Virus record (IMG/VR): IMGVR_UViG_3300023371_001771
Coordinates: 1 to 64,000 of that record
DNA: 64,000 nt
Source of the DNA: a virus
Lineage: Duplodnaviria; Heunggongvirae; Uroviricota; Caudoviricetes
Direction: 5' to 3' (one strand)
Below the pieces are notes generated by a model. It was given only the letters and a program-made list of their open reading frames with translations. It ran no database searches and was not told the origin of the DNA. Shown in pieces: positions 10,846 through 57,300 of this stretch (position 1 is the first letter of the stretch; every line of letters begins with the position of its first letter). Position numbers and translations under genes: made by a program.

Positions 10846-10870
10846 GTTGCCACCTCCACTTTCTGTCGGT

Positions 10871-10899: not shown

Positions 10900-10911
10900 G
10901 CACCTACGCGT

Positions 10912-10948: not shown

Positions 10949-10959
10949 TTATATTCATA

Positions 10960-12138: not shown

Positions 12139-12161
12139 ATATATTCAATCTCCTTTTATGT

Positions 12162-12185
12162 CATTATTAATTTTGTATTGTTAGG
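12162..12185 (-). promoter_or_regulatory. conserved leader motif copy
   Basis: ctaacaatacaaaattaataatg on the minus strand, between hairpin 12184-12205 and the RBS of the Sak4-like gene. Confidence 0.5.
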
Positions 12186-12205
12186 AGTGAGCTGTCGCCC
12201 ACTCC
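12184..12205 (-). terminator. stem-loop after the SSB-like gene (terminator-like, no clear U-tract)
   Basis: ggagtgggcgacagctcactcc. Confidence 0.35.
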
Positions 12206-12214
12206 TTGCTTGAT

Positions 12215-13288: not shown

Positions 13289-13317
13289 AATTACGTCTTC
13301 TCCTTTTAGTCCTTAAA

Positions 13318-13659
13318 TTATTCCTTGCAATTGCAATGTTCACAATTGCCATCACAGTCACATTCATCTTCAACTAGAATGTCTGCAAATCCATCCTTGA
13401 ACATTTCGTCCAGTACATTAAGCAGTTCGTAAACGTCATCACATTCAAAAACCTGCTCCATAATGTTAAATTTTACGCGTTCGTAATCAGAAGGGGTGCT
13501 CATATCAAACTCATAAACCCAAGTAGGATCACAGCAACAACTTACCCTAAACATAGATTCATCACAATGCTTCTGAAGCTCAATACAGTACATGTCTTCA
13601 TAGATGCCAGCAGTGTGAAAAGTGATTACCTCAGCAGTATAAGTTCCGTTGTACACCAT
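13318..13659 (-). CDS. hypothetical Cys-rich protein
   Basis: ORF with a C-terminal CDCDGNCEHCNC cluster. RBS and leader motif lie upstream. Confidence 0.5.
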   Translation of the reverse strand: MVYNGTYTAEVITFHTAGIYEDMYCIELQKHCDESMFRVSCCCDPTWVYEFDMSTPSDYERVKFNIMEQVFECDDVYELLNVLDEMFKDGFADILVEDECDCDGNCEHCNCKE

Positions 13660-13679
13660 ACCATTAATCTCCTTTTACG

Positions 13680-13698
13680 CCATTAATCTTGTGTTGTT
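13680..13698 (-). promoter_or_regulatory. conserved leader motif copy (variant with caagattaatgg)
   Basis: aacaacacaagattaatggcg on the minus strand, upstream of gene 13318-13659. Confidence 0.5.
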
Positions 13699-13906
13699 AA
13701 TATATGAATCGATCCATATTAGGATTCATATATAAATAAATATCTTCCTGGTCTTCGCCCAAGTTCAAACCTGTAGTTATACCACAATTTGGACAATTAG
13801 CTTTCACAAACGTCTCGTCAATTGGGATATCGTGCGGGGTTATATATATTACTCCACATGTTTGACATTGGATATAACAACTTTCTCTTTTCCATTCCGT
13901 ACTCAT
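13697..13906 (-). CDS. zinc-ribbon protein
   Basis: Contains CQTC...CPNC. Promoter 13980-14008 and leader motif lie upstream. Confidence 0.5.
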   Translation of the reverse strand: MSTEWKRESCYIQCQTCGVIYITPHDIPIDETFVKANCPNCGITTGLNLGEDQEDIYLYMNPNMDRFIY

Positions 13907-13943
13907 TATTCATGTTTGGCCTCCTTCCATACCGTCTCAATAC

Positions 13944-13963
13944 CATTAATTTTGTGTTGTAAT
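13944..13963 (-). promoter_or_regulatory. conserved leader motif copy
   Basis: ttacaacacaaaattaatgg on the minus strand, downstream of promoter 13980-14008. Confidence 0.5.
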
Positions 13964-13979
13964 CTTACATCATGTAAGC

Positions 13980-14008
13980 ATTATATCATATATTTTCCAG
14001 CTTGTCAA
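13980..14008 (-). promoter_or_regulatory. sigma70-like promoter (TTGACA-N17-TATAAT)
   Basis: Minus strand: ttgacaagctggaaaatatatgatataat. Confidence 0.55.
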
Positions 14009-14036
14009 GTGTTTCCCCGCCCCAACCGCCATATTT

Positions 14037-14303
14037 TTATAATATAGTATAATCAATATATAATTCCATTACTTCACTTTTCAAACAACATGCTTTGTCA
14101 TCAATGCTTATCTCACAAAGCTCGTCCATAGTGATATATCTCTCTTCGTCTTCAATAATAAGGCCGATGCGACCCTCGTCCACAAAAGGATGAAGGACAC
14201 ATCTGTTCATTTTTTGGTTACCATACAGCAAATGATTGATTCGCAAATTTGCGTTCTTATTTTCTAGTGCCATAAATTTCTCTATAAAATCTCTTGTCAA
14301 CAT
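14037..14303 (-). CDS. hypothetical protein
   Basis: ORF in the co-oriented array. Confidence 0.45.
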   Translation of the reverse strand: MLTRDFIEKFMALENKNANLRINHLLYGNQKMNRCVLHPFVDEGRIGLIIEDEERYITMDELCEISIDDKACCLKSEVMELYIDYTIL

Positions 14304-14327
14304 TTGTTATACCCCCTAGGCTGTCAA

Positions 14328-15242
14328 TTACACAAAATCCTTAAAGCGATGTGCTAAATTATCTACGTAGCTATCTGACTGAAATCCATACTTTTCAGCT
14401 AACTGCCTACCATCTTCAGATCTTAAAAAGCTTTTAAGCTCAAGCCCTGTTTCTTGCATGCCTTGAACTAAATAATGGTACATGCCGCTGATGTGTATGT
14501 TTTTCATTGTTAGGCTGGGGATACCAACTAGATCTCTGAAGTTTTGCAGTTTTCTATACACCCATCTAAAATTGCGGTCATCAGAATCTGCGGCATGTGC
14601 ATTATCTCTTTCCTTGTATAGTCTGCCAACTCCAATGAGTTTTTTAACTCTCAAGGATTCTCCATAACACATATATTCAACTTCATCGAACGCTTTTGTC
14701 AAAAGTTCATACAGTCTATCTGTCAATTGAACCACTCTTCCGTCAGAGAAATATAATGATTTCTCCCTTGAATTGACCATAGATCTATCAATCTTCACCA
14801 AGTCATTCATACTTGGTCCAGAAATGCCCTCCCATAAGCACTCTAAGATTGCCTTGTCAGTCCAATTGTATAACTGACCCTCGATTTCAGTTATTTCTTC
14901 TCTACTTAAGAATTTCATGCTATCAGGTGGAACGCATGGCTTTAATAAATCTATTGTAATACTATTATATGAGTCCGTTGTTTTATCTTTATGATAATAC
15001 TTTCTCCATGCGCAATATGCTTTTAGAATTACGTTGTAATTCATAAGCACATAAACCGATTTTGCCTTAAATTCTTTATACATTTCTAAAGATTCTGCGT
15101 TATTGAACTGACTGCAATCTTTATTATTTTTTTCTTCAAAAGGTTCTGTTTTTCTGAATAGACTATATAAAGACGTTCTGGCTACCACCCTTGACCTTAA
15201 ATAATCGTTTATAAAACCTTCTTTCATGTCAGATTGATACAT
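14328..15242 (-). CDS. hypothetical protein
   Basis: ORF trimmed to ATG (MYQSDMKEG) downstream of the sigma70-like promoter at 15267-15295. Confidence 0.5.
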   Translation of the reverse strand: MYQSDMKEGFINDYLRSRVVARTSLYSLFRKTEPFEEKNNKDCSQFNNAESLEMYKEFKAKSVYVLMNYNVILKAYCAWRKYYHKDKTTDSYNSITIDLLKPCVPPDSMKFLSREEITEIEGQLYNWTDKAILECLWEGISGPSMNDLVKIDRSMVNSREKSLYFSDGRVVQLTDRLYELLTKAFDEVEYMCYGESLRVKKLIGVGRLYKERDNAHAADSDDRNFRWVYRKLQNFRDLVGIPSLTMKNIHISGMYHYLVQGMQETGLELKSFLRSEDGRQLAEKYGFQSDSYVDNLAHRFKDFV

Positions 15243-15266
15243 TGATATTGCCACCCCTTTGTGGAT

Positions 15267-15295
15267 TATTATATATGACGAACATGTGTTTGTCA
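15267..15295 (-). promoter_or_regulatory. sigma70-like promoter (TTGACA-N17-TATAAT), motif-like AACAATTACAAA immediately upstream of the -35
   Basis: Minus strand: caacaattacaaattgacaaacacatgttcgtcatataataat. Confidence 0.5.
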
Positions 15296-15316
15296 ATTTG
15301 TAATTGTTGGAATATT

Positions 15317-16291
15317 TTAAATCATACCATCCAAAATATTCGCTGCCTTTTTCTGCTTTTCCTTGGACAGTTCAGCATATCTTTGCGTGGTTGATACATT
15401 TTTATGATGCAGCTGTTTAGCGCACAAATAAATATCACCAGTCGCTTCGTACAAGTTAGTCGCGCAAGAATGTCGCATTACGTGAGGCGTAACATGCTTA
15501 TCGGTTGCCCCTTTTGCATATTTGTCCATCATGTCCTTGACTGTTCTTACGTCCAGTCTTGTGTTTCGCTGAGTGACAAACAATGCATCATTGTCCGCAG
15601 CATTAAAATACAGTTCACGATCTTTAAGCCACAATTTGATTTGTGTTTTAAGATTATCGCCGATTACTACGCAAGCGTCATGATCACCCTTTTCTGTAAT
15701 ATAGATTTGATTATGCTCCAAATCCAAATCGCTAATATCGATTTGTACAATAGCAGAAATTCGTAGACCAGTTGCAAACCCAAGTTTCAAAAGACACAAA
15801 TCTCTATTTATTAGCTTTTCGTTTGCTGTCTGTTCTACATTTTTCAGAATTTTTGCGATTTCTTCTGAGGTCAAAAAAGTTACATTAGGATTGTCTTTCA
15901 TCTTCGGTCTTGATGTATTGCTTACTGGATTTGTGTCAATATAATCAGGCACCAAAAACTGAAAAAACGAGTTAAGCGCGGACCAATTCGTTGTCTTATA
16001 GCTATCGGATGTCCTTTCGGTTTTTCCATTAGTTGATTTAGTTCTCAAAGAAGAAATGTACCTGTTAATATGGCTAGTATTTACATCAAGATAGAATTCT
16101 TCTGGACATTTCACCTTAAATGTAAATTTAATAAATCGAATTACACTTGAAATGTATTCTTTTGCCGTTCTATATGATTTGCCTGCACCAATTAGACTGT
16201 ACCAGTAATCAGTCAAAATAGACGGCATACCTTGTATATTTTTCATAACATTTTGTTCAATCTGCATTTCATTTTCAAATCTACCACTCAA
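15317..16291 (-). CDS. tyrosine recombinase/integrase (XerC/D-phage integrase family)
   Basis: C-terminal catalytic motifs HVMRHSCAT ... LHHKNVSTTQRYAE (R, H-x-x-R, Y). The start is uncertain: a TTG after AAGGAGG at 16291, or an upstream ATG at 16342. Confidence 0.8.
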   Translation of the reverse strand: MSGRFENEMQIEQNVMKNIQGMPSILTDYWYSLIGAGKSYRTAKEYISSVIRFIKFTFKVKCPEEFYLDVNTSHINRYISSLRTKSTNGKTERTSDSYKTTNWSALNSFFQFLVPDYIDTNPVSNTSRPKMKDNPNVTFLTSEEIAKILKNVEQTANEKLINRDLCLLKLGFATGLRISAIVQIDISDLDLEHNQIYITEKGDHDACVVIGDNLKTQIKLWLKDRELYFNAADNDALFVTQRNTRLDVRTVKDMMDKYAKGATDKHVTPHVMRHSCATNLYEATGDIYLCAKQLHHKNVSTTQRYAELSKEKQKKAANILDGMI

Positions 16292-16697
16292 CGTAACGGC
16301 CTCCTTTTTCGATCTTCTTCTTTCTCCAGCTGAAAAAAACATATGAAATCAAACACCACAGTATAATATTTCCTTTGAAAATCGTCGCGACAATCATAAG
16401 GAAAATATACCATACCCACCCAATGGTGAGTCCGTCAATCATTGAATCTGGCAACACTTTTTCTTCTGGAAAATGTACATTACTATTTGTTTTACTTGTT
16501 ATTTTAATAAAACAGTTATCAAAATGTTCCTGATACGCATGATACCTTGCGTGGCCAAGTTTATACACATACACTTCACGTTTCGTATCATAACAAATAA
16601 ACGTAGCTTCCGTTTCTTCAAGGCCATCTTTAACAATAAATACTGTACCAGTATAATATTTTTGCCCATCAACAACAAAATAATTTTGAAACCTCAT
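16281..16697 (-). CDS. hypothetical membrane protein
   Basis: ORF trimmed to ATG after GGAGG. C-terminal TM helices. Confidence 0.45.
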   Translation of the reverse strand: MRFQNYFVVDGQKYYTGTVFIVKDGLEETEATFICYDTKREVYVYKLGHARYHAYQEHFDNCFIKITSKTNSNVHFPEEKVLPDSMIDGLTIGWVWYIFLMIVATIFKGNIILWCLISYVFFSWRKKKIEKGGRYVEW

Positions 16698-16912
16698 TGA
16701 ATTTCCTCCAAGCAAGAAATCGCTTCTTCGAGCGCATCAATCGCTGCTTCCAAGTTTTCTTGTGCCTCCTCAGATTCCATTCCTCTGTCAGATCCCTGCA
16801 AACTTTCGGGCATGTTGTCAAACGCTTCCTGTTCATCATCGAGAATGTTCTGTACCAGTTCTTCGATGCGCTCAATTGCCTGTTTGATTTGCTTTCTTCT
16901 TGCCTTATTCAT
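16694..16912 (-). CDS. small acidic coiled-coil protein
   Basis: ORF with ATGA overlap to the next gene. Confidence 0.45.
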   Translation of the reverse strand: MNKARRKQIKQAIERIEELVQNILDDEQEAFDNMPESLQGSDRGMESEEAQENLEAAIDALEEAISCLEEIQ

Positions 16913-17175
16913 GCCTGTACTCCTCCAGTTACTTCCATAATATATTCGTTGATCATAATCTTTCTAGCTTTACGCTTCTGTTTAACCAATTCCCGCTGTC
17001 TCCAATACTGGTGTTCTTCATTCTTAACAAGATGCTTGCACTCTTTCTGAAGACAGTTCTTGCACTTCATCTGCTTTACAGTCATAGATGCGTGATGGTG
17101 TCGGCAGTACGCAGCTACATTGTTTGAGCAGGTATTAAACAGACATTCCTTCATAGTATACCACCTTTCCTGCAT
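16909..17175 (-). CDS. Cys/His-rich zinc-binding protein
   Basis: Contains CLFNTC...CRHHH...CKNC...CKH. Promoter 17175-17202 lies upstream. Confidence 0.5.
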   Translation of the reverse strand: MQERWYTMKECLFNTCSNNVAAYCRHHHASMTVKQMKCKNCLQKECKHLVKNEEHQYWRQRELVKQKRKARKIMINEYIMEVTGGVQA

Positions 17176-17203
17176 TATACCTCATTAATTTTGAATTGTC
17201 AAG
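17175..17203 (-). promoter_or_regulatory. sigma70-like promoter with the motif as spacer (TTGACA-attcaaaattaatgagg-TATAAT)
   Basis: Class A arrangement. A tandem second TTGACA lies upstream. Confidence 0.55.
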
Positions 17204-17230
17204 ATTGTCAATTTTGAATATTTCAACTAT

Positions 17231-17746
17231 TTATGCGATCTTTTTACGCTTTTCAAAAGTTCTCTTGTATGGTTCAAATTCTTTTGTCTCATCATATCCA
17301 ATGCTTTTAAGAATCTGGATCCTTTCTGTTTCATCAATAATTCTAGTAATTTTAATCTTATCCGTAATAATCCATATGCGATTGCATCCAGTCTCTCTAA
17401 ACCTGTAAAATCCGTTCTCTGGGATATGATCTACAAAACATTTTTTAGGTAGTTGCGCAACCACGTCAGTATAATCTACTGCTGTGTTACATTCTACTTC
17501 ACACCAAACTCTTTTCCATGTTTTACCCCTTTGTGACTTATACATTCCATTGGCAGACATAAGCCATGGTGCAGAACAAATCTGGCCTACATGAATACCA
17601 GGTCTTTTTGCGAAGCCTGCAGTTGGATGATTTTCTGCTTGAATCCATTGTCCAATTGGATATACAGTTTTCTTATCAATAAACAACGGATACAAATTGC
17701 CGAACCTATCCATTTCAAATAACTTGTAGTATTTCTGTTTGCTCAT
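17231..17746 (-). CDS. hypothetical protein
   Basis: ORF in the array. Confidence 0.5.
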   Translation of the reverse strand: MSKQKYYKLFEMDRFGNLYPLFIDKKTVYPIGQWIQAENHPTAGFAKRPGIHVGQICSAPWLMSANGMYKSQRGKTWKRVWCEVECNTAVDYTDVVAQLPKKCFVDHIPENGFYRFRETGCNRIWIITDKIKITRIIDETERIQILKSIGYDETKEFEPYKRTFEKRKKIA

Positions 17747-17949
17747 ATATTATACCTCCCTTATTCCTCTGTATCAAACAGCATTTCAATTGTATTATTT
17801 TCTTCATCAATATTAAATTCCTGAAAATATGTTTCAAACCATTCCTGTTTATTTCCATCTACAAAATAGATTTCTGCATTTGGATATATTTCTTGCAATT
17901 TTAACAAATTCTTAACGAGTTCTTTAATTTTCATACTTCCATCTCCTTT

Positions 17950-18279
17950 TTAATTATCATACTTTGAACAATGCCCACTTGCGCACACCAGATCTTCAAT
18001 AAAAGGTTCATATGCCTTAATAAACCTAATTAGTCTACCAACATCAGATCGCCATGTCTTGCGTTCATCTTCGTATTCGCTATGCCTCATTTCTTCATTG
18101 CAATGCCCAACCTCATAATAAGTACTAAGCACATAATCGCACTCAGCAACCATATCACGCAAATTCCATTCGCTTGTATTTTCACTAAGCGTTTCTCCAA
18201 TTGTGTTATGTTCATAGCAAAGTGAATACATGATATTGTTGTATCTTTTAAGCGCACTTTCCATGTTTAACTTCTTCAT
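17950..18279 (-). CDS. hypothetical protein
   Basis: ORF in the array. Confidence 0.45.
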   Translation of the reverse strand: MKKLNMESALKRYNNIMYSLCYEHNTIGETLSENTSEWNLRDMVAECDYVLSTYYEVGHCNEEMRHSEYEDERKTWRSDVGRLIRFIKAYEPFIEDLVCASGHCSKYDN

Positions 18280-18494
18280 TATTCAAACCTCCATTCGTCA
18301 GGAAACATCATCCAACCATTACGCATCATATCTTCAAACTGAATGCAATAGCATTGATTCTGTTCATATGCGTTAAGATTACACCATAAAAATCCTGTGT
18401 GGTTGTATCTATCTTCTGCTTCTTTCCATACTGTATTTACAAACTCCAAATGACTCATACACTGTCCAGTTTTAACATTTATAAATTTTAACAT
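18279..18494 (-). CDS. hypothetical protein
   Basis: ORF in the array. Confidence 0.45.
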   Translation of the reverse strand: MLKFINVKTGQCMSHLEFVNTVWKEAEDRYNHTGFLWCNLNAYEQNQCYCIQFEDMMRNGWMMFPDEWRFE

Positions 18495-18507
18495 TATTTA
18501 CTCCTCC

Positions 18508-18759
18508 TTATACGTTCAATGTTCCAGTTTCAATCATGATCACATGATAATTTTTAACAACAAAACTATACGAATAACCTACCGCACCAGGAGCCACACT
18601 CCACCCCATAGATTCTCTTACTCCAAAATAATCACATCTCTCTTCAAAATTCATGCTTTCCAATTCCCAAAATTCATCATCGTTCTCAAGTTCAAAAACA
18701 TGAATCTTTTCCGCAGTTTCATCCCAGCTGTTCCACTCAGATTCAAAAACCTTTTTCAT
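18508..18759 (-). CDS. hypothetical protein
   Basis: ORF in the array. Confidence 0.45.
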   Translation of the reverse strand: MKKVFESEWNSWDETAEKIHVFELENDDEFWELESMNFEERCDYFGVRESMGWSVAPGAVGYSYSFVVKNYHVIMIETGTLNV

Positions 18760-18760
18760 A

Positions 18761-19231
18761 CTATTTCTCCTTAAGCTGCATTTTCAAGTGCGCAATTTCA
18801 AGTCTCAGCTCACAATTATCTCTTGTAAGCCTATTAATCAAGCTTTCATTTCTTTCAGCCTTCTGAAGTCGTTCTTGTTTAATCTCGTCTTCACTGTACA
18901 TATCCCAATTTTCTTGAGTGTAATCGTGCATCACATCAAAGATGCTATAGTCAATGATTCCCTTGCTAATGATTTTATTAGTATCACAATCTACAATTAC
19001 ATACGCATTCCCCTCAAAATACATATAAATTAAAGACAAGTCATAATCATTATCAAACTTAGTTCTTTCAATGCGCTCTCCATACAACGGATCATCAGAT
19101 AAATTTCTTATGTCTGTAATCAGCATGTCATACTGGCCGCGCTTCTTTGGTTTCCATTCGCTCTTAACAATAGTTAACCAATCTTCATCAAATCCTAATC
19201 GTTCTAATTTTTTAATTGTTCTTATATCCAT
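18761..19231 (-). CDS. hypothetical protein
   Basis: ORF in the array with a coiled-coil C-terminus. Confidence 0.45.
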   Translation of the reverse strand: MDIRTIKKLERLGFDEDWLTIVKSEWKPKKRGQYDMLITDIRNLSDDPLYGERIERTKFDNDYDLSLIYMYFEGNAYVIVDCDTNKIISKGIIDYSIFDVMHDYTQENWDMYSEDEIKQERLQKAERNESLINRLTRDNCELRLEIAHLKMQLKEK

Positions 19232-19248
19232 TTAACATATCTCCTTTT

Positions 19249-19602
19249 TTAACAATATTTATCACAATACTTTTGAATCGCTTTTCTGTTTTCATTTGTG
19301 TCAATCCAGCCCAAATATTTTCTGTCAAAGTTTTCAGGAAGTTCTTCAATAGGAATAATTTTAACTCCATCTTTAATTGCTTGCTCTGTAGCCTTATCAT
19401 CATCAAAACATCCTACATCACTAATTGCTTCAATCTCCAACATTCCAGTTCCATCAAAGTTAAAAACCTCATAGCCCTTATTGCAACTTTCAGGTCCCCA
19501 ATCATAAACTATATCTTTAATTGCTTCCTCGTCGTTTCCATAATATCTCATCATTTGTTCGTATCTTTCTTTTGTCAAACCAAATTTACTCATAATAGCC
19601 AC
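19249..19602 (-). CDS. hypothetical protein
   Basis: ORF with the leader motif immediately upstream (19603-19623). Confidence 0.5.
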   Translation of the reverse strand: MAIMSKFGLTKERYEQMMRYYGNDEEAIKDIVYDWGPESCNKGYEVFNFDGTGMLEIEAISDVGCFDDDKATEQAIKDGVKIIPIEELPENFDRKYLGWIDTNENRKAIQKYCDKYC

Positions 19603-19623
19603 CTCAATTAATTTTGTACTGTT
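19603..19623 (-). promoter_or_regulatory. conserved leader motif copy
   Basis: aacagtacaaaattaattgag on the minus strand, directly upstream of gene 19249-19602. Confidence 0.5.
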
Positions 19624-20300
19624 TAATGCTGATGAAACACAACTGCTTTGAGCGCTTTAGACCAACATGCGCCACAAGCCGAGCAAGTAGATTCTCTTCC
19701 AGGACATACGAACGCGTTCTTAGGAAAGTCAGGATTCAAACGCTTGTCGTTAAAATCTACATACGCAACACCCAGTCCATGAGGATTAGGAACTTCCCAC
19801 AGCTTGTCCCAAGCGGAAAACATGATATTAAGATTGTCAGGCAGTTTTCCGTTCTTGTCAATGTAGTCATTTACAAGTTCGTACTGCTTAGTAAACGCCA
19901 TGTATTTAGTGCTAGGAGTTTTCTTACACAGATCCACAAGTCTTACCAGAAAAGCCATATCAGGGAAATCACCGCTATCGAAAATTCTCACCTTAGGAAG
20001 TCCAGAAAACTTTACCTTGTAATAAACCTGTTCAAAGAAATTGTCAGGATCGTCATAGTACAGTCTAAGGTTTCTGTAATATGCTGCCTGTACATTCGCC
20101 ATTTGCTGAAATCCCTTACATGCATAGCAAGTTGACTTACAAGGTGCATCATTACGACAAGTACATACTGGAAATGCAAGATTCAAACAAGCTGCGCCAG
20201 TCTTGCTGTTCTTATTAGCCATGTTAATTTCATTACTCTTGTTTGCGAGAAAATCAATATACTCCTGTTTAGTTGCAAAAAATTCTTTATTCTGTTTCAT
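19623..20300 (-). CDS. Cys-rich protein with CX3CX2C motif (possible Fe-S/radical-SAM-like enzyme)
   Basis: CKSTCYAC (C-x3-C-x2-C) plus a C-terminal CPGRESTCSACGAC cluster. Trimmed to ATG after GGGAGG. Confidence 0.45.
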   Translation of the reverse strand: MKQNKEFFATKQEYIDFLANKSNEINMANKNSKTGAACLNLAFPVCTCRNDAPCKSTCYACKGFQQMANVQAAYYRNLRLYYDDPDNFFEQVYYKVKFSGLPKVRIFDSGDFPDMAFLVRLVDLCKKTPSTKYMAFTKQYELVNDYIDKNGKLPDNLNIMFSAWDKLWEVPNPHGLGVAYVDFNDKRLNPDFPKNAFVCPGRESTCSACGACWSKALKAVVFHQH

Positions 20301-25712: not shown

Positions 25713-26972
25713 TCACATGCTTCTCACCAAAGTGTCATAAACTGCTCTGTTTGTGAGGATTGCATTCTGCATGCAGCGGATTGACAGATAACCGTCAATT
25801 TCCTTGTCGGTTTTATTTCTGTTCGCCGCTACATTTTTGCCCGTCCCTCTTAAGATGGTGTAATCTTCTTTATCACTTACACTACCAAGACCTCCAATCT
25901 TTTTCTTATTTGTTGCACAGGCTCTAATGCAATCCATTACGAACTGATTCAAAATGTCAATATCTTTTTGTACATTAATGATGGGAAGCACTGAAGTTGC
26001 CCACGAATACTTGCCATCTCCTTTATACAAATAAGATTGAACTTGATTGAGCGCTCGCTTCATGGAAATATTGCGCTGCTTGATTGTCCGAGATTCAATC
26101 TCTTTTTGAAAACTCTTTACGCGAGACTTGGCAAGTGTAATTTGATTTCCTTTGATATAGAAACCAAGGAACTTAAACCACCTGTCTTTCGTAAGAATCT
26201 CAACTTTCTTTGGATTCAATTCGAGTTCCATTTCATCAAGCATTCTCTTAATGGCTGCGTATGCTTGCTCCCACTCATTTCCTAGTGCCAACAAATCATC
26301 TGAATATCTAACATAGTAAACATTCATATCACTTATTGCCTTGTCAATGGGATACAACACTGCATCAGCCAAGAAGCTTGCCACAGCGCAACCTTGTTTC
26401 AAAGACTGATAATGTTCAATCAGTTCTCCATTGAAGTCAAAGCACAAATCTGCATGATAGTATTTCCTTACAACATCAATGATCTTTGACTTACCAACTT
26501 TCGATTCCATTCTGTCAAAGATGTCATCAATGTATCTGATAGGAACCCTATCAAAATACTTGGTCAGGTCTGCTTTCAGTCCAACCTCGCGAGTCTTTGT
26601 ATTAATCACCTGCCTTGATACTTCCTGTACAATCTTGCCGCAACCAATGCCGCTTTGGTATGATTTGCAACTCTTATGAACGAACTCAGGAAACATCTCA
26701 AAGAACAAATTGTTTGCAATGGATAAGAAGATTCGGTCTACATTTTCATTAACGTAAACAATTCTCATATCTCCATTGTCTTTAGGAATCTGTGCTTGGT
26801 GCGGCGGAGCGATTTCGTAATTATCAGTGATAATTGCATTGTACAGCGCAAGTCTAACTTCTGGAGATGTAAGTTTTCTTAATTCTCCCTTGTCGATGTG
26901 CTTGTCGACACCAACTTCAAGTGCCTGCTCCCAGCGTTCAGTTTCAAAAAACTTCTTCAACAAAATGTCCAA
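25713..26972 (-). CDS. reverse transcriptase (prokaryotic RT, unclassified lineage)
   Basis: RT motifs IPKDNGDMRIV (1), LKADLTKYFDRVP (3), QGCAVASFLADAVL (4), YVRYSDDLLAL (5, YxDD), LNPKK (6), FKFLGFYI (7). No maturase X domain and no obvious VTG motif. Confidence 0.8.
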   Translation of the reverse strand: MDILLKKFFETERWEQALEVGVDKHIDKGELRKLTSPEVRLALYNAIITDNYEIAPPHQAQIPKDNGDMRIVYVNENVDRIFLSIANNLFFEMFPEFVHKSCKSYQSGIGCGKIVQEVSRQVINTKTREVGLKADLTKYFDRVPIRYIDDIFDRMESKVGKSKIIDVVRKYYHADLCFDFNGELIEHYQSLKQGCAVASFLADAVLYPIDKAISDMNVYYVRYSDDLLALGNEWEQAYAAIKRMLDEMELELNPKKVEILTKDRWFKFLGFYIKGNQITLAKSRVKSFQKEIESRTIKQRNISMKRALNQVQSYLYKGDGKYSWATSVLPIINVQKDIDILNQFVMDCIRACATNKKKIGGLGSVSDKEDYTILRGTGKNVAANRNKTDKEIDGYLSIRCMQNAILTNRAVYDTLVRSM

Positions 26973-27585: not shown

Positions 27586-28529
27586 TTACACAGCAATCTT
27601 TTTATTTACCATGTTGTTAAACTGGTCAAAGATTGCATGTCCATCCATGATTTTGCTCCAGCGGTTTTCTTGATACGTTGCGGTGTTGCGTCGAGGTGCT
27701 GCGTGGGTAATAACATCACTCATTGCGTTAACTGCCTTCCATGCGCTGTCTTCAAACTTTGCAATATCTGGCATGTTGTATGCAGTCCAGTAGTTATTCT
27801 TAAACTGCTGTACATTGTTCTTTTTCTTCTGGCTTGCATCTTCCTTTACAGGGAACATTTCATCAAGAATCTGCTCAATCTGTTCACGATAAAGCTTTGC
27901 GTTTGCAAGTCGGTCTGCCTCTTCATCAAGATTTACCATATAATCGTTAGCCAACTGCAAACACAATTTCGCTTCTTCAAGCTTAGACTGCATATCGCCA
28001 ACGTGCTTAGTGCTCCACTGACGCTTTGCACCATTAAGTGCCATACTTAAAGTGTTCTGACAAACCACTCGAATAGGAGTCATGGCAATTCTGATTGCGC
28101 CTGTGCCATCATGAGAATTTGTAAACACCATAAAAGGATCTACATCATCATCAAGCACCTTCTTTGTAGGCATCTTTGCGAGCAGCCAAATTCTCTTGCC
28201 TCCTGCGAGAGAGCCTGCGGTTTCATAGGTTACAACTCCGTCTTCCGTTTCACCAACAATTTCATCAGTAAACTCAAACGCTTCAACGTCTGTACAATCT
28301 TATAGCGGTCGCTTACAATACCAAGAATCGTGCCATCAGTGTCACGTCTGTTTGCCTTATATCCAGGAATCTCAATGCCAGAATCAGTGAACACAGGAGT
28401 CTGTTCTACGCGCCAATCAAGTCCAGCAAAATGCAATGCGTCTTCGCTCGTCGGTGCCTTTTCAACATTCACACCCAGTCCATGCCACGGTACCTGTCTT
28501 ACATAAAACATAGATTCAACATTATGCAT
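27586..28529 (-). pseudogene. frame-split gene (two ORFs, 28529-28230 and 28173-27586) encoding one ~320-aa protein if a -1 frame change occurs near 28190-28225
   Basis: The upstream ORF ends ...GIVSDRYKIVQ. The -1 frame continues without a stop as DVEAFEFTDEIVGETEDGVVTYETAGSLAGGKRIWLLAK-MPTKK.... No canonical slippery heptamer is seen. Confidence 0.45.
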
Positions 28530-29112
28530 TTTCCTTTTCTCCTTTTTCTTTATAGTAATTACTTACAGTTTCTTTCCACGATTTACCAGACAAAATGCCA
28601 TTTACCAACCCTCTGCTTAGACCGAGCATCTTGGCAATTTTCCTACATCCAAAGCCTGTATCATCTCTTATCTTCAAGATTGTACATACTATATCGCTTG
28701 TGATTATTGCATTATAGTGCTGCTCTTCTCTTGGTGCATATGTTGCTACATCCGCTGGATGTCTTAGCCCATTATCAAGCGCATGCTGATTGTTTTCAGA
28801 TGGCGTCACATATTCAAGATTTTCAATTTTATTGTTATGCTTATTACCATCTTTATGATTAACAACATATCCTTCTGGACACTTGCCAAGAAATGCTTCT
28901 GCAACCGCTCTATGCACACGAATATTTATCACTTGATATTTCTGTGGCCTTGCTTGTAATGTCATATATCCATTTTTATTTTCGAATTGCTTTAATGTAC
29001 GCTTAGTGATTGCATTTCTGAATCTTCCGAAGTTGCTTGCTTCGTACATATTGTTCAGTGACGGAATTGGTTTCCATATTTCATTGCATAGATTTTCATC
29101 ATTAGCTGCCAT
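28522..29112 (-). CDS. HNH homing endonuclease (NUMOD4 N-terminus, HNH_3 core, C-terminal HTH)
   Basis: EIWKPIPSLNNMYEASNFGRFRN (NUMOD4-like), VNHKDGNKHNNKIENLEYVTPSEN (HNH) and IAKMLGLSRGLVNGI (HTH). Confidence 0.8.
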   Translation of the reverse strand: MAANDENLCNEIWKPIPSLNNMYEASNFGRFRNAITKRTLKQFENKNGYMTLQARPQKYQVINIRVHRAVAEAFLGKCPEGYVVNHKDGNKHNNKIENLEYVTPSENNQHALDNGLRHPADVATYAPREEQHYNAIITSDIVCTILKIRDDTGFGCRKIAKMLGLSRGLVNGILSGKSWKETVSNYYKEKGEKENA

Positions 29113-40994: not shown

Positions 40995-41181
40995 AATACA
41001 TCACTCCTATGGTTAGATTATTTATGTCGTTACCTATGATGTCTGTGGTGTGGGTCTCAGACCATGCCATAACACCACATATGGCAGGAATGTCTGGAGC
41101 TAATCCCAGACTAAGCAACTCTAGGTGATGCCCGAAGGCATTGGAAAAGAGCCTGTTTAGGGCACAGACTCTTTAGGAAGC

Positions 41182-41202
41182 CCACTAATTTTGTATTGTT
41201 GG
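41182..41202 (-). promoter_or_regulatory. conserved motif copy (variant caaaattagtgg) just after the first leftward gene
   Basis: ccaacaatacaaaattagtgg on the minus strand, followed by hairpin 41120-41160. Confidence 0.45.
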
Positions 41203-42639: not shown

Positions 42640-43290
42640 CTTATTATAGCACAATTTTCACGACAAATATGTATTTGTTTTGATGTGTGTATTTATACAA
42701 AAATCCTGCATAAATTGCATAGGGGAGCATAAAACTACAGCTTTTTTGCATAAAAAGTGTATAAAGGAAAGGTGGTTTATTTACACACTGACTGCAAAAT
42801 ACGCCATATATGTACACATATTCAGATATTGGCATGTCATCAGCGCATCCCTAAAACCACCCCATTATAATTAGCCAACCGCATGCGCACTTATTGATAT
42901 TGCAACACCTCCAAATCATCAATGATCGCATCTTTATTTAAATTTTTTATTGTTTAATCCAACAACGAATCATTATCGTTTTTACACCTATTTTTTAAAA
43001 ACACCTCGTTTATCGATAAACCGCAAATAAATCATTATTGCTTTCCATCAGTTTTCGCCCAGTAAAACAACCGCTTAACAAAGCATAAATAAAACTACCA
43101 TTAAACAGCAGCACTAAAAACCAACTAACAATTCATTGCGTTTTTTAAAAATTTCAAATCACCACTCATAAAAAACAAACCCCAAAAATCACTTAAAACA
43201 TTTTCAAAATTTAAACCGACCCGCAAAACCCTCAATAAATCATTACCACTTTCACAGCAACACCACCCGGGGCACCTTCAAACTACCTCT
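42640..43290. promoter_or_regulatory. AT-rich divergent control region between the two arms, strongly G-depleted on the plus strand
   Basis: The plus strand is almost only A, C and T across about 42,900-43,280. It carries degenerate direct repeats aaataaatcatta(t/c)...ctttc at about 43,021 and 43,232, and ttttttaaaaa at about 42,993 and 43,144. Confidence 0.45.
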
Positions 43291-43319
43291 TGACAAACCA
43301 TTCTTACGCATGCTATACT
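43290..43319 (+). promoter_or_regulatory. sigma70-like promoter (TTGACA-N18-TATACT) for the rightward arm
   Basis: ttgacaaaccattcttacgcatgctatact. Confidence 0.55.
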
Positions 43320-44003: not shown

Positions 44004-44033
44004 ATTGACATTTCCAGCATTTGGTGCTATACT
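44004..44033 (+). promoter_or_regulatory. sigma70-like promoter (TTGACA-N17-TATACT)
   Basis: ttgacatttccagcatttggtgctatact. Confidence 0.55.
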
Positions 44034-51593: not shown

Positions 51594-51613
51594 AAACAAT
51601 ACAAAATTAATAG
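51594..51613 (+). promoter_or_regulatory. conserved motif copy upstream of the RNAP-like gene (AAACAATACAAAATTAATAG)
   Basis: No sigma70-like hexamers are evident nearby. Confidence 0.5.
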
Positions 51614-51631
51614 TTAAGGCGGTGATGTTAT

Positions 51632-54430
51632 TTGGCAAAGCAAAAAAAATTACAACAATATGTCTTTAAGATAAACTCTACTCTATTGAGAAAAAATGAT
51701 TGGAACTTAACTTTGCCGCTAAATAGGGCTAGAAATACGACAGGTCTAGTTGTCGCGCTTGCTGATTCTCAGATTTTGTCTTGGATCAACGAGCTTAATG
51801 GAACTACGGATTATGATATTCAAGCTAAAGAAATAAAGCGCCAAATTAAAGAAATTAAAAAGCAGCCAGTAAGTCGTAACAACAAAACTAAAATCTCAAA
51901 TTTGTACAAGCAGTTATATAGACTGCAGTTCAAAGAAGATTACTTGTGTGTCATAATGGACAAGAAATCAGATTATGATCGCGCAAATCAAGGATTTTAT
52001 GTTAATGGTATTAAGTATTTGCGACTTTTGTGCACAACAGGCGGTGTAAAAACCTCAACAGTTGTGTATGTGAGCGAAAAGCTACATCCAGAACTCAAAA
52101 AGCGTATTGAAAACGGCAAGAACAATGAAGTGCAACTTGTCCCTGCCAAATTGGGCGCATATGAGGCTTTGGCCGCTAGTGGATCTCTTGAGGTGAGTTG
52201 GCCAAAGGACAAATATGCTCCAATCCCTGGTGGTGTAATAGTAATCAAGGACGCGTTTACTGAGTTTTATGCTGATTTGATTAATATTGATGATAGCGAC
52301 CGCTCACAGGAGCCAATTGTGCAGTTTGAGCCAAATCAATTAGTTAAAAATGACTGCTCTGACGGATGCTCTATGATGCTTCCATCTTTGTCTAGGCGCT
52401 GGAATGGCGAGCTTAATGATGATTATGAGCACACAATGAGCGGATGCAATCTTCGTTGCGCGTGGACCAAAGGCATGACTTTTACTTTTGATTATATAAA
52501 GTTTGCAGAAGAGGTTGTCGGTGCATCAGATGATTACCCAGAAAAGTATTTGATAACAGATATTTGGGGACAGCAAAGAGATATTAGAGACTCTGAGCTG
52601 ATAATCACTGAAAGCCAGCTTAAACTTTGGAACTGCTATGATTCGTGGGAAGATTTTTACTACAAGTGCCTTGAAAATAAATATACTCTTAGAATTGCGA
52701 AGACTGCGCCGCATGAAGTGGACAATGTAAGACAGTTAAACTATCAGTTTATACAGTCTTTGAGCCTATCAGATGATGATATTCGGGAGCTTATAGCACC
52801 TACTGTTGATGAAATTAAGGATACGCTTGGCATGGATCCAAGAAAAAGCCTTGTGTATTTGTGCGGCAAAAATCTTAAAGCTGAAAACATAAAGTACTCT
52901 GATGTTGCAGCAAGGGCAATAATGGCAAATACGGATGTTATTAATGACCCATATATTCGTAACAGAATCAAAAAAATGATCAATAAGCGCATTAGAGAGG
53001 CAAAAATTGGAGTGCTTGACGTGCGCGGCAACTTCCAGATTATATCTGGTGACATATATGCGCTATGTGAGAGTATGTTTGGCCTTGAGGTGCATGGGCT
53101 ACTTAAGGCAGGTGAAATTTACAGTAAATATTGGAAGGATAATGGCGTTAAGCGTGTAATGTGCGCTAGAGCGCCAATGTCAAACGAGCATTCGCTGGTC
53201 TCTCAGGATATTTGTTACGACGATAAGGTTGAATATTGGTTCAAATACATGGATACTGTGGCAGTTGTAAACGCTTGGGATACGATGCCAATGGCACTTA
53301 ATGGCTTTGATTTTGATGGAGATTTGCTATTTACTACTGATAGCACTCCATTGCTTAACAATCAGAAGAACTTGCCTGCGCTAAATTGCATTCAGTACAA
53401 GGCTTCAAAGAAGGTTGTTACCGAAGAAGATGTTATCAAAGCAAATAAAAATGGTTTTGGTAGTAAGATTGGCAGTATTACAAATAGAATCACTGCAATA
53501 ACTTCTTTGATGGCAAATTATGAGCCAGGAAGCGTTGAATATGAAACTTTAAGGTATAGAACTCAGTGCGGACAGGCGCTTCAGCAAGAAGAAATTGATA
53601 AAGCAAAAGGCATTTTGCCAAATCCAATGCCTAAAAGTTGGTATATTTTTAGTGAAAATGTCATAAAAGATGATGATTCTGACGAGATTAAAGCTCAAAA
53701 AACACTCAATCAGAGGCTTTGCGCAGCCAAAAAACCTTACTTTTTCGGCTATAATTACACCACTTTGAAGCAAGAATATGACTCATATGTGCGTGATACA
53801 GACGATCATGTTCAGAGTATAACGGGCAAAAACATCCGTGATTTGCTTAAAAATGATGGAAAATTGCCCGAAAATGAGCAAAAAATACTTGATTTTTATA
53901 AAAAGAGGCTCCCTCTTGACATTTCTCCATCAACAATGAATCGAATTTGTTGGGCTATTGAGGATGAGTTCGATGGTGTTGATATGTTTTCTAATGTTGA
54001 TTTTGATTATTCTATTTACAAAAGTGGAATAGAATATTCTGTTGAAGATTATGAGCTTATAAAATCAAAATGCGAGTCATTCAAGCAGAAAAAACGAGAA
54101 ATCAATAAGAAAAAATTTGTTGACTGTGAAGTTGAAGACGAAAGTTTCGCTGATCAAATGCAAAAATTGAACTCCGATTTAGAAGAAGATTGCTTTTCTA
54201 TCTGTTCCAATGAGCAGGTTTTATGTGAAATTTTGCTTGATATTTGTTACAAAGACGGATTTGATACATGTATCGTGTGGAGTTTGTGCGGAGATATAAT
54301 TGTGGAAAAACTTGTGAGTAAATCTGGTGTCTACAGTTATCCAGAGCAGTGCGCTGATGGCGAGTTTAACTTCGGAGGTCTGCAGTTTGTCATGAAAAAT
54401 ATTGCGGTTGGAGGTGAAGTGGATGGTTAA
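51632..54430 (+). CDS. YonO-like single-subunit RNA polymerase (two-barrel, beta-prime-like catalytic motifs)
   Basis: VMCARAPMSNEHSL aligns with the beta-prime NRAPTLH motif. About 40 aa downstream, ALNGFDFDGDLLFTTD aligns with the universal beta-prime NADFDGD catalytic motif. Size 932 aa. TTG start after AAGGCGG. Leader motif lies upstream at 51594-51613. Confidence 0.55.
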   Translation: MAKQKKLQQYVFKINSTLLRKNDWNLTLPLNRARNTTGLVVALADSQILSWINELNGTTDYDIQAKEIKRQIKEIKKQPVSRNNKTKISNLYKQLYRLQFKEDYLCVIMDKKSDYDRANQGFYVNGIKYLRLLCTTGGVKTSTVVYVSEKLHPELKKRIENGKNNEVQLVPAKLGAYEALAASGSLEVSWPKDKYAPIPGGVIVIKDAFTEFYADLINIDDSDRSQEPIVQFEPNQLVKNDCSDGCSMMLPSLSRRWNGELNDDYEHTMSGCNLRCAWTKGMTFTFDYIKFAEEVVGASDDYPEKYLITDIWGQQRDIRDSELIITESQLKLWNCYDSWEDFYYKCLENKYTLRIAKTAPHEVDNVRQLNYQFIQSLSLSDDDIRELIAPTVDEIKDTLGMDPRKSLVYLCGKNLKAENIKYSDVAARAIMANTDVINDPYIRNRIKKMINKRIREAKIGVLDVRGNFQIISGDIYALCESMFGLEVHGLLKAGEIYSKYWKDNGVKRVMCARAPMSNEHSLVSQDICYDDKVEYWFKYMDTVAVVNAWDTMPMALNGFDFDGDLLFTTDSTPLLNNQKNLPALNCIQYKASKKVVTEEDVIKANKNGFGSKIGSITNRITAITSLMANYEPGSVEYETLRYRTQCGQALQQEEIDKAKGILPNPMPKSWYIFSENVIKDDDSDEIKAQKTLNQRLCAAKKPYFFGYNYTTLKQEYDSYVRDTDDHVQSITGKNIRDLLKNDGKLPENEQKILDFYKKRLPLDISPSTMNRICWAIEDEFDGVDMFSNVDFDYSIYKSGIEYSVEDYELIKSKCESFKQKKREINKKKFVDCEVEDESFADQMQKLNSDLEEDCFSICSNEQVLCEILLDICYKDGFDTCIVWSLCGDIIVEKLVSKSGVYSYPEQCADGEFNFGGLQFVMKNIAVGGEVDG

Positions 54431-55325: not shown

Positions 55326-55346
55326 CTTACAATACAAAATTAATGC
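55326..55346 (+). promoter_or_regulatory. conserved motif copy (CTTACAATACAAAATTAATGC)
   Basis: Lies between gene 54423-55313 and gene 55461-55646. Confidence 0.5.
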
Positions 55347-55460
55347 CCAAAACACCAATAAATCATTGGTGTTTTTGGCATTTCTAAAAAATGACTTTCA
55401 ATTTTTATAAAATGAATAGTAAATAGTTTGACAAATTAGCAATACAGGAGGTACAAAATT

Positions 55461-55655: not shown

Positions 55656-55982
55656 TTGGAAGGAGCAAAAAAAGATATGGAAAGGGTAATGAAAAAACCA
55701 GAGCTTGCGCGTGAATTGGCGCAACGCACAGGGTTTTATATAAAAAATATGGAAGCCGTCTTAGACGCGCTTGATGATATTATCGTTGACAACATGAGTA
55801 TGGCCACAAAAGACGAGCCGTCAGAAATCCGTCTTTCTCTTGGGTTTATACTTGGCGGAAGATATTCTCCTAAGCATGAGGTTAGGGATCCACGCACAGG
55901 TGAAAGTGTAATGACTCCTGCAAAATATATTCCTTATGCTAAGTTTAGTCCAGCATTTAGAAAGAAAATTAACAAGAAGTGA
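55656..55982 (+). CDS. HU/IHF-family DNA-binding protein
   Basis: ELARELAQRTGFYIKNMEAVLDAL ... RDPRTGESVMTPAKYIPYAKFSPAFRKKIN matches the HU fold signature (RxPxTGE..I.P....P.FK.GK.L). Confidence 0.7.
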   Translation: MEGAKKDMERVMKKPELARELAQRTGFYIKNMEAVLDALDDIIVDNMSMATKDEPSEIRLSLGFILGGRYSPKHEVRDPRTGESVMTPAKYIPYAKFSPAFRKKINKK

Positions 55983-57190
55983 TGGTGACGGCAATGAATG
56001 ATAATTTGAAAAGACTGCCTCAGGAGACAGATGATCAGTATTTTTATCGTGTGTGTCAAATGAAGGACAGTCTTGGTTTTACATGGCCACAAATGGCAGA
56101 GATTTTTAATAATGAATTTGGTCGTAACATTGGTGATTCGGCGTATCGCAAAAAGTGGGCCGCATTTAGAGGTGTATTTAATGCTAATACTGACAAGCTT
56201 GTCGGCGAGAATACATATTTAAATGAGCTGAAAGAGCAGACCGACGAGCTGTACAAAGCAAAAAGGCAGCTCTACGATCAGAGACGTGAGTATAATAAGA
56301 TGCTTGTTAGTGACGCGAGAGCCGATCATTTGGTTGAAATGCTAATTGAAGCGGCAAACATCGCGCCGCTAGAAAATTACTCAAACATTTTTGTGTGTGA
56401 CTCAAATTCATCCACAAAAGAAGCGGTTTTGCTACTTTCAGACTGGCATTACGGACAGATTTCAGATAATATTTGGAATAAGTATAATACTGAAATTTGT
56501 GAAGATCGCGCTGGCAGATTATTTAAAAAAGTTTATAGCGCATTAAAAGATCATTGTGTTAGAAAAGTGCATATTGTACTGTTGGGAGATTTGATTAATG
56601 GCGCAATTCATAATACTTGCCGTGTTGCCTCTGAGGAAAATACTTGTGAGCAACTAATGCATGTTTCAGAGCTGATTGCGAATTTTATTAATGCTGTATC
56701 TAGATGCACATCAGAAGTATATGTGTATTCTACTTATGGCAATCACGCACGTACTATTCAAAATAAAGAAGATAGTATTCATGCGGACAACATGGAACGA
56801 GTTATTCCATGGTGGCTGAAGCAGAGACTTAAGGACAATAATAAGGTTACTGTAGTTGACAGTGAATATCATGAATTTATTTATGTTGATGTGTGTGGGC
56901 ATCATGTTGTTTGTACACATGGTGACTTAGATAAGTTTAAAGACATTGGTATTACCATTAACAGCCTGTTTTCCAAGAAGTATGGAAAGACTATTGAGTA
57001 CACATTCTCTGGAGACAAGCATCATTTAGAGTCTTTTGAGCAGTTTGGTATTGAATCTGCGCTTGTCGGTTCTTTGTGTGGCACTGATGAATATGCCAAT
57101 AATAAGCGATTGTATTCTAATCCTATGCAGACACTGTGCATTTTTACTCCAGAAGATGGTAAATTATGCTCTTATAATATAAAATTATAA
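55982..57190 (+). CDS. metallophosphoesterase (calcineurin-like; possible SbcD/Mre11-type nuclease or phosphatase)
   Basis: MPP motifs SDWHYG (DxH), LLGDLINGAIH (GDxxD), GNHA (GNH[DE]), and a later THGD. Confidence 0.55.
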   Translation: MVTAMNDNLKRLPQETDDQYFYRVCQMKDSLGFTWPQMAEIFNNEFGRNIGDSAYRKKWAAFRGVFNANTDKLVGENTYLNELKEQTDELYKAKRQLYDQRREYNKMLVSDARADHLVEMLIEAANIAPLENYSNIFVCDSNSSTKEAVLLLSDWHYGQISDNIWNKYNTEICEDRAGRLFKKVYSALKDHCVRKVHIVLLGDLINGAIHNTCRVASEENTCEQLMHVSELIANFINAVSRCTSEVYVYSTYGNHARTIQNKEDSIHADNMERVIPWWLKQRLKDNNKVTVVDSEYHEFIYVDVCGHHVVCTHGDLDKFKDIGITINSLFSKKYGKTIEYTFSGDKHHLESFEQFGIESALVGSLCGTDEYANNKRLYSNPMQTLCIFTPEDGKLCSYNIKL

Positions 57191-57207
57191 CAACACAAAA
57201 TTAATAT
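57189..57207 (+). promoter_or_regulatory. conserved motif copy (AACAACACAAAATTAATAT) ahead of the packaging module
   Basis: Directly after the metallophosphoesterase stop and upstream of gene 57301-57519. A hairpin (ggtgtattgtacacc / ggggaatttcccc) follows. Confidence 0.5.
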
Positions 57208-57300
57208 TTGGGCTGGTGTATTGTACACCCTGGTCCACCTAGCGACGGGGAATTTCCCCGTCATTTTTAATATACAAAGAATAAAGGAGAACAAATAATT

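Follow-up and report, generated by a model that had tools for sequence, protein, structure and literature searches.

A predicted YonO-family RNA polymerase gene, its conserved downstream partner and a repeated 17-nt motif in an SPbeta-like metagenomic phage

Does a phage recovered from metagenomic DNA encode its own RNA polymerase, and how would such an enzyme find its promoters? These questions are raised by an open reading frame (ORF) at 51632-54430 in the IMG/VR virus record IMGVR_UViG_3300023371_001771 (Caudoviricetes). The window analyzed here covers positions 1 to 64,000 of that record, which is 64 kb of a phage of about 171 kb. A preliminary description of the DNA had proposed that the 932-amino-acid (aa) product is a YonO-like single-subunit RNA polymerase. 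The YonO-like branch of the two-barrel polymerases has been recognised by sequence analysis since 2003, and one member was shown biochemically in 2017. This member, YonO of phage SPbeta, acts as a DNA-dependent RNA polymerase and requires its aspartate triad (Forrest et al. 2017, PMC5467207). YonO transcribes SPbeta's late genes from a start upstream of yonK, while its promoter and any requirement for a factor were left open in 2017 (PMC5467207). It is the only family member studied, and the literature searched describes neither its promoter nor a helper. Among the known relatives of cellular RNA polymerase, enzymes of this type are the smallest, and they inform ideas on the origin of that enzyme. 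The evidence assembled in this paper indicates that the gene very likely encodes a YonO-family double-psi beta-barrel RNA polymerase of an SPbeta-like phage, its activity being predicted. The polymerase adds a member to a large, already recognised family and nothing new on catalysis; a partner gene and a repeated motif found with it bear on the question of promoter recognition.

Identity of the polymerase gene

The relation to YonO can be seen directly in sequence comparison. By BLASTP, the protein matches SPbeta YonO with an E-value of 1e-33 and 25% identity over 526 aa (residues 116-623 against YonO 128-602), and the alignment pairs DFDGD with DNDGD, RAP with RSP, DGCSMMLPSL with DGCGMMLPSL, and R.AWTKG with R.PWVKG. 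Both proteins hold the two barrels in a single chain with the same catalytic residues. The two segments on which the preliminary description relied, ARAPMSNEHS (residues 512-521, nt 53165-53194) and NGFDFDGD (residues 557-564, nt 53300-53323), are indeed present, and they align with RSP and with the catalytic DNDGD of YonO. Their spacing, put at about 40 residues, is roughly right (47 from R513 to D560). Among phage records searched by tblastn, the closest are c-st (37% identity, full length), Enterocloster phages including PMBT24 (39%), and BUCT082 (28%, full length), followed by SPbeta and its relatives, with SPBc2 yonO reached at E 1e-23 (25% identity over residues 116-623). The homologues of c-st (CST179/178), PMBT24 and BUCT082 are all full-length. 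The family is large, comprising 1,688 clusters at 50% identity (E up to 1e-3), and prophage copies of the polymerase were found in Lachnospiraceae, Oscillospiraceae, Ruminococcus, Paenibacillus and Cohnella.

Conservation was assessed in an alignment of 82 diverse homologues (25-58% identical), from which YonO was left out or to which it was added. Positions invariant in both cases include D244, G245, K280, G281, R513, P515, D560, D562 and D564, and R275 is retained in at least 90% of the homologues. Since R513, P515 and the three aspartates are invariant in the 82 homologues and in YonO, the RAP/DFDGD pair is not a chance occurrence. Ruprich-Robert and Thuriaux listed eight residues common to all two-barrel RNA polymerases (PMC2919709). 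These correspond to Rpb1 R446/P448/D479/D481/D483 with Rpb2 D837/K979/K987, and to D709/R738/K743/R962/P964/D1007/D1009/D1011 of QDE-1 (PMC2919709). In the window protein the set is complete: one barrel holds D244, R275 and K280, the other R513, P515, D560, D562 and D564. By analogy with the biochemistry of YonO, the catalytic Mg would be held by D560, D562 and D564.

The structure model leads to the same group of enzymes. An AlphaFold (AF2) model built from the alignment has a predicted local distance difference test score (pLDDT) of 93.5 and a predicted template modelling score (pTM) of 0.90. In Foldseek searches with this model, RDR2 (E 1e-17, template modelling (TM) score 0.48) and QDE-1 (E 2e-13) were matched with a probability of 1.00. 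Over all RDR2 and QDE-1 matches, E-values range from 1e-17 to 1e-11 and TM scores from 0.38 to 0.48, across approximately 750-960 columns. The two-barrel fold is judged from these whole-chain matches. A search of all solved structures with the family profile gave significant matches to QDE-1 and to the RDR2 enzymes of maize and Arabidopsis and to no others (E 4e-5 to 1e-2); the alignment to RDR2 runs through the DG.G...R..KG barrel and includes a weak stretch at G-DxDGD. Profile and structure searches, which might have returned no polymerase-type fold, were thus both positive. No YonO-family structure was present among the PDB entries searched with the family profile, and in a 2024 paper QDE-1 and crAss-like gp66 are the only other reported single-chain two-barrel structures to which the paper's enzymes are compared. 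Among the viral models of BFVD, the top matches were phage proteins labelled as RNA-dependent RNA polymerase (RdRP), with an E-value of 6.5e-41.

The likeness to the beta-prime subunit, on which the gene had first been noticed, stands for the arrangement of the motifs and not for the nearest solved folds, which are those of QDE-1 and RDR2. Beta-prime chains were far weaker in Foldseek, with E above 0.02 and TM below 0.1 on the whole chain. Multisubunit RNA polymerase has in common with the window protein the RxP...DFDGD of the beta-prime barrel and the aspartate and two basic residues of the beta barrel; it differs in that the window protein carries both barrels in one 932-aa chain, with no detectable sequence match between the two. 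A flap (SBHM) insert is not expected in this lineage (PMC7824862). The phage polymerases gp66 of crAss-like phi14:2 and gp64 of P23-45 belong to the same superfamily and likewise are phage-encoded enzymes taking over transcription, but they are distant fold matches only (crAss-like BFVD entries at E 6e-3 or worse) and come from other phage lineages.

Several searches weigh against the identification or leave it without a name. Single-sequence searches of Pfam, NCBIfam and PDB sequences gave no match, so that at the level of libraries the identification came from profiles and structure only. PHROGs returned matches to families of unknown function only, with no functional name. The biochemistry of the family comes from YonO, outside the clade of the window protein, and the nearest solved folds, RDR2 and QDE-1, are RNA-dependent enzymes. 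A T7-type right-hand polymerase was indicated neither by the Pfam RNA_pol family nor by fold matches in the Foldseek and BFVD searches.

The RNA-dependent character of the nearest folds gives rise to another reading, in which the protein would make copies of RNA, from phage or host, instead of transcribing DNA. The best structural matches and the family profile point to the same two enzymes, four of eight relatives match the Pfam RdRP family PF05183 (best E 2.1e-20), a precomputed match to this family stands on many close homologues, and PMBT24, Perkons and one NR entry are annotated as RdRP. The window protein itself has no PF05183 match at E up to 1. QDE-1 and RDR2 have the DG.G...R..KG and DxDGD signatures in common with it, but are only 10-14% identical, are eukaryotic silencing enzymes acting on RNA, and have neither a phage context nor a partner gene. 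The RdRP label derives from kinship of fold and not from an assay, and QDE-1 structures include complexes with DNA templates, according to the entry titles. Moreover, YonO, the sole characterised phage member, is DNA-dependent and transcribes late genes (PMC5467207), and the window gene belongs to a double-stranded DNA phage, where it heads the late region as in SPbeta. An RNA-copying enzyme is thus considered highly improbable. Least credible of all is a decayed or repurposed relative without polymerase activity, or a primase for phage DNA replication, for which nothing specific speaks beyond the missing functional name in Pfam, NCBIfam and PHROGs: the catalytic residues are all kept and are invariant or nearly so in the 82 homologues, the frame is intact and full-length, the model is very confident, relatives retain the gene despite putative introns at catalytic codons, and a DnaB-like helicase and other replication genes are located elsewhere, on the - strand.

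The limits of the gene are well supported. The ORF listing reproduced the 932-aa frame exactly. Its TTG start, which had been proposed by inference, is the earliest in-frame candidate past a stop codon (TGA 51623-51625). Gene calling done independently on the 171.5-kb ENA metagenome contig of origin, ERZ27248446 k141_738774, gave the identical product; most homologues of 83-90% identity also have 932 aa, and alignments with more distant homologues and with phrog_25339 begin at residue 1.

The polymerase genes of some relatives are interrupted. Unlike the window gene, that of c-st is split between D562 and G563 by an insertion of 317 nt (L005 8672-8988; L numbers denote the records of relatives). 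Two other relatives (L009 and L010, 11969-12996) have an insertion of 1,028 nt between D656 and K657, which contains a GIY-YIG endonuclease ORF. Both kinds of insertion gave sub-threshold Rfam matches to group I introns (E 1.6e-4 and 3.6e-3), the Rfam gathering score for this intron class not being reached. On this sequence evidence they are candidate group I introns placed within catalytic or conserved codons. Database homologues that stop near residue 560 or begin near residues 577-596 are numerous, probably from the same cause.

The partner gene and the zinc ribbon of YonO

Homology, fold and context agree with the YonO-like part of the earlier proposal. The term single-subunit may be an oversimplification, since the stop codon of the polymerase gene is overlapped by a conserved partner gene. 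The 296-aa partner protein is predicted to consist of a helical N-terminal domain, a winged-helix-like domain, and two CxxC...CxxC zinc ribbons. In c-st (CST177, E 5e-17), BUCT082 (E 1e-8) and PMBT24 (E 3e-4), the gene directly 3' of the polymerase encodes a homologue, and in these phages the partner homologue overlaps or abuts the polymerase and is followed by an HU-type gene. In a survey of 167 loci with hidden Markov models of polymerase and partner, 162 loci with at least 900 nt downstream were counted; the partner directly follows the polymerase in 161 of them, with SPbeta as the sole exception. Genes of the partner type, of 240-310 aa and overlapping or abutting the polymerase stop, were also observed at L003 12822-13697, L005 10104-10934, L006 11366-12088 and L007 6034-6870. 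No description of the partner gene was found in the literature searched, and the c-st record notes CST177 as resembling the YonO C-terminus.

The chain ends of YonO and the window protein were compared as well. YonO has 839 aa as against 932 in the window, and the match in the body of the window protein continues until the YonO core ends (W883 with YonO W777), the multiple alignment reaching YonO residue ~790 and window residue ~895. Beyond this point the two differ. In YonO, the final 45 residues make up a CxxC...CxxC ribbon that is homologous to the first zinc ribbon of the partner (BLASTP E 0.008), and the hhalign comparison of the partner ribbon with YonO residues 794-830 gave a probability of 87% with E 3.7e-6. 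The window polymerase, in contrast, ends in a small beta domain without cysteine pairs, a ribbon like that of YonO (796-820) is not present on the chain, and the homologous ribbon is found on the separate 296-aa protein. Judged from sequence, the fused C-terminal ribbon is a trait of YonO itself and not of the family, in which the split form is common (161 of 162 loci). Kinship of the partner ribbon with Rpb12/RpoP or S27e was also considered; at E 0.01-0.4 this is generic ribbon similarity and no evidence.

In 161 loci the polymerase is paired with a predicted partner of DNA-binding type, of which only the zinc ribbon is fused on YonO. The overlapping 296-aa protein probably acts with the polymerase as a subunit or initiation factor. 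A bolder proposal goes further: YonO-type polymerases would not be truly single-subunit, a co-translated partner would provide promoter recognition nearly everywhere, the promoter in this phage clade would be a T7-like 17-nt element of the form ACARYACAARATTAAT-G, and SPbeta YonO would be the exception with only the ribbon, in fused form. This whole chain of suppositions is speculative and rather unlikely to hold in full. If the partner were the promoter recogniser, the question of 2017, how YonO finds promoters, would be answered. The partner and the motif are leads and not results; they open the way to experiments on how a minimal two-barrel polymerase recognises its promoters.

The repeated 17-nt motif as a candidate promoter

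The motif ACARYACAARATTAATG occurs in 21 copies in the window, compared to 0.4 expected, when up to 2 mismatches are allowed; written as ACARYACAARATTAAT, it mostly has a G next to its 3' end. Each of the 21 copies runs in the direction of the surrounding genes, on the - strand up to 41.2 kb and on the + strand from 43.3 kb (Table 1). The motif is non-palindromic and its flanks are not conserved. A copy upstream of the polymerase gene, reported earlier together with a lack of sigma-70 hexamers, is present at 51596-51611, and the best promoter-like score near the gene in the promoter scan was at most 9/12. The copies occupy several kinds of position. Eleven of the 21 are tied to strong sigma-70-like promoters: in one setting the motif lies in the 17-nt spacer, with its ACA ending TTGACA (8598, 10881, 17184), and in the other it lies 1-25 nt 3' of the -10 hexamer. 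Further copies, that at 51596 among them, sit between a stop codon and GGAGG plus start codon without promoter-like hexamers. A hairpin with a T-run follows three copies (41184, 55329 and 57190, the last hairpin being the one that ends the DUF3800-XI RNA).

The motif also recurs outside the window. Phages with a polymerase of no more than 57-69% identity carry it at syntenic positions, and it also stands 5' of the homing-endonuclease ORF within the putative polymerase-gene intron of L009 and L010. At 12 loci it lies 0-27 nt past the partner stop, and in 10 of these a hairpin follows, with compensating changes in the stems. The unit of motif and hairpin, with A-tract and T-tract, was observed at 55329-55380 and 41131-41199 (-) in the window and at L003 13711, L008 13699, L013 13711, L023 13725/16949 and L088 10431/13648. 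Within the unit, the promoter-like motif stands before, and not after, a terminator-like hairpin.

It is possible, at somewhat less than even chances, that ACARYACAARATTAAT-G is the promoter of the polymerase, with the start at or near the G. Promoters of phage polymerases are conserved, intergenic motifs of ~17-23 bp that are strictly co-oriented with downstream genes and present in many copies per genome; the motif has these traits and is placed after stop codons. Strict co-orientation of a non-palindromic site, copies without a host-type promoter, and a copy at the place equivalent to the YonO promoter (P_YonO) favor this reading. In addition, some copies begin just 1 nt past the end of a -10 hexamer; a host transcript would then begin inside the motif, and its 5' half is conserved nonetheless, which points to a role at the DNA level.

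Several comparisons weigh against this reading. L015 has a polymerase as close to that of the window (60% identity) as the polymerase of the motif-bearing L003 clade, and no motif was found in 16 kb of it including both syntenic sites. The motif is missing from all clades with a polymerase of 46% identity or less, and none of c-st, Enterocloster PMBT24 and BUCT082 has it. In the P_YonO region of SPbeta no match was found: the best position weight matrix score was 14.4, compared to 22-32 for true copies, and lay outside the start-site interval, which is bracketed by the published primers (L001 5946-6140). The yonN-yonK non-coding leader of SPbeta, including this interval, is 95% identical in BUCT082 (L001 5847-7342 vs L007 7447-8960). 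The polymerase of BUCT082, in contrast, shares only 25% identity with YonO, belongs to the window type and has a separate partner. This combination implies that the catalytic chain alone probably does not set promoter choice.

About as probable as its contrary is the view that the polymerase is active as a YonO-type enzyme and the motif is not its promoter, being instead a leader or intercistronic RNA element (for translation, processing or antitermination) or an operator bound by a phage regulator of host-polymerase promoters, with one unrecognised late promoter in use as in SPbeta. The eleven copies in or just past strong sigma-70-like promoters fit an operator or leader, many copies abut GGAGG and a start codon, several precede a hairpin and T-run as an RNA-binding antitermination site would, and L015 and SPbeta lack copies altogether. 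On the other side stand the ten copies without a nearby sigma-70-like promoter and the conserved 5' half described above. Of the two specific forms of this view, an RNA-level leader or antitermination element is the more probable, though less so than the promoter reading; three or four copies lie in promoter spacers and are absent from the RNA of that promoter. An operator, for which the association with host-type promoters would speak, is unlikely, as co-orientation of 21/21 copies and a non-palindromic site are both unusual for one. For the candidate promoter, a phage with such a strongly repeated motif offers a direct test case.

Some further candidates were rejected in the course of these comparisons. 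An 8-nt resemblance seen by eye in SPbeta (ACACAAAA) was dropped as chance. In clades with a polymerase of 42-46% identity, ACCGCAAAGG... near contig ends proved to be tandem terminal repeats and not gene-proximal, and a PMBT24 repeat, TTCAATTCGTAAAG, does not lie at syntenic sites. A sigma-70 promoter replacing the motif before the L015 hairpin was considered; the promoter scan found none, and the argument was dropped. The motif as promoter of the DUF3800-XI RNA fails in L012, where the RNA is present without the motif. As a separate observation, seven gene junctions of L015 (974-5398), the phage without the motif, share GGTGAG[CT]GAATG, in which ribosome-binding site and start codon are fused.

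Genomic context and other features of the window

The coordinates of the features are collected in Table 1. An array of small + strand ORFs extends from ~43.3 kb to 51.6 kb, upstream of the polymerase, and the terminase and portal genes lie downstream, so that the position originally described for the gene is borne out. The only strong + strand sigma-70-like promoters found by the promoter scan are the two at the head of the early operon. For the closest relatives, bins of metagenome-assembled genomes pointed to conflicting hosts (Prevotella, Gastranaerophilales and Paludibacteraceae), and no host is claimed. From this context, the host RNA polymerase would make the phage polymerase, as the last-but-one gene of the early operon transcribed from the 43290 and 44005 promoters. 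The phage polymerase would then transcribe the late genes, from the YonK-like gene onward through terminase and portal, and possibly more.

Table 1. Positions of the polymerase gene, its signatures and associated features in the window
Feature	Position	Strand	Remarks
CDS (coding sequence), YonO-family two-barrel RNA polymerase (predicted)	51632..54430	+	932 aa, TTG start, TAA stop
Shine-Dalgarno-like AAGGCGG	51617..51623	+	8 nt 5' of TTG; same layout in 94% identical relative L010
Beta-like barrel signature D244-G245...R275...K280-G281 (DGCSMMLPSL...RCAWTKG)	52361..52474	+	= QDE-1 D709/R738/K743, Rpb2 D837/K979/K987 (PMC2919709)
R513-A-P515, RxP of beta-prime-like barrel	53168..53176	+	= Rpb1 R446/P448
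D560-F-D562-G-D564, predicted Mg-binding aspartate triad	53309..53323	+	alignment; YonO triad essential (PMC5467207)
Partner gene, 296 aa	54423..55313	+	8-nt overlap with polymerase gene; own GGAGGTG
Sigma-70-like promoter	43290..43319	+	11/12, TG-extended; then motif at 43327
Second sigma-70-like promoter	44005..44033	+	11/12, TG-extended; then motif at 44038
Motif copies	1606, 5103, 7239, 7693, 8598, 10881, 12166, 13682, 13945, 17184, 19607, 22495, 26988, 29127, 30459, 41184	-	
Motif copies	43327, 44038, 51596, 55329, 57190	+	
16/17-nt motif copy ACAATACAAAATTAAT	51596..51611	+	3 nt past stop of upstream ORF, before polymerase gene
Motif copy	55329..55344	+	16 nt past partner stop; position equivalent to P_YonO, upstream of YonK-like gene
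Hairpin, A-tract before, T-tract after	55345..55380	+	-18.4 kcal/mol; stem covaries among relatives
YonK-like gene, 61 aa	55461..55646	+	weak Pfam YonK match
HU-type DNA-binding protein, YonN counterpart	55677..55982	+	gene/family searches
YonJ-like metallophosphoesterase/exonuclease	55982..57190	+	gene/family searches
Motif copy	57190..57205	+	overlaps YonJ-like stop codon
DUF3800-XI RNA	57209..57262	+	Rfam RF02975, 46.1 bits vs 37.8-bit cut-off; terminator-like hairpin end 57244-57262

Downstream of the polymerase, the order is partner, YonK-like, HU-type, YonJ-like, a 72-aa gene, YonG-like, large terminase, portal and YonD-like, with Pfam matches to YonK, HU, YonJ_N, YonG_N and YonD_N. Judged by gene content and order, this is an SPbeta-type late region. 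YonO in SPbeta likewise has an HU-type gene, YonK, YonJ, YonG, terminase and portal as neighbors. The order of HU and YonK is swapped in the window, however, and in place of the 1.7-kb yonN-yonK non-coding leader of SPbeta the window has short intergenic regions with the 17-nt motif.

Structured RNAs were observed in the late-region leaders of several YonO-type phages (window 57209-57259; L001 7021-7086; L007 8632-8697; L005 12965-13025; L012 13321-13368). The window and L012 have DUF3800-XI, SPbeta and BUCT082 have DUF3800-VIII, and in c-st a RAGATH-18 RNA precedes the HU gene; SPbeta also has a sub-threshold skipping-rope match directly after yonN. The "unannotated non-coding RNA" of Forrest et al. 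may be one of these RNAs.

The remaining observations concern the - strand part of the window. A cluster of 11 tRNA genes (2826-7133) comprises Gly, Tyr, Leu, Arg, Ala, two Ser, Thr, Gln, Asn and Lys, and amid it lies a drum RNA (RF02958, 68.6 bits, 5837-5946). The DnaB-like helicase (8626-10167) and a Sak4-like annealing protein (10960-12138) are encoded on the same strand, as are two neighboring integrase-like (tyrosine recombinase) genes at 14328-16342. An HNH endonuclease lies at 28522-29112. The PHROGs matched by a 419-aa ORF (25713-26972, -) bear the labels reverse transcriptase and polymerase (E 7e-23). Promoter-like sequences number 86, compared to 60 in shuffles, and seven perfect 12/12 sigma-70 promoters (TTGACA-16/17-TATAAT) occur on the - strand within 1-20000.

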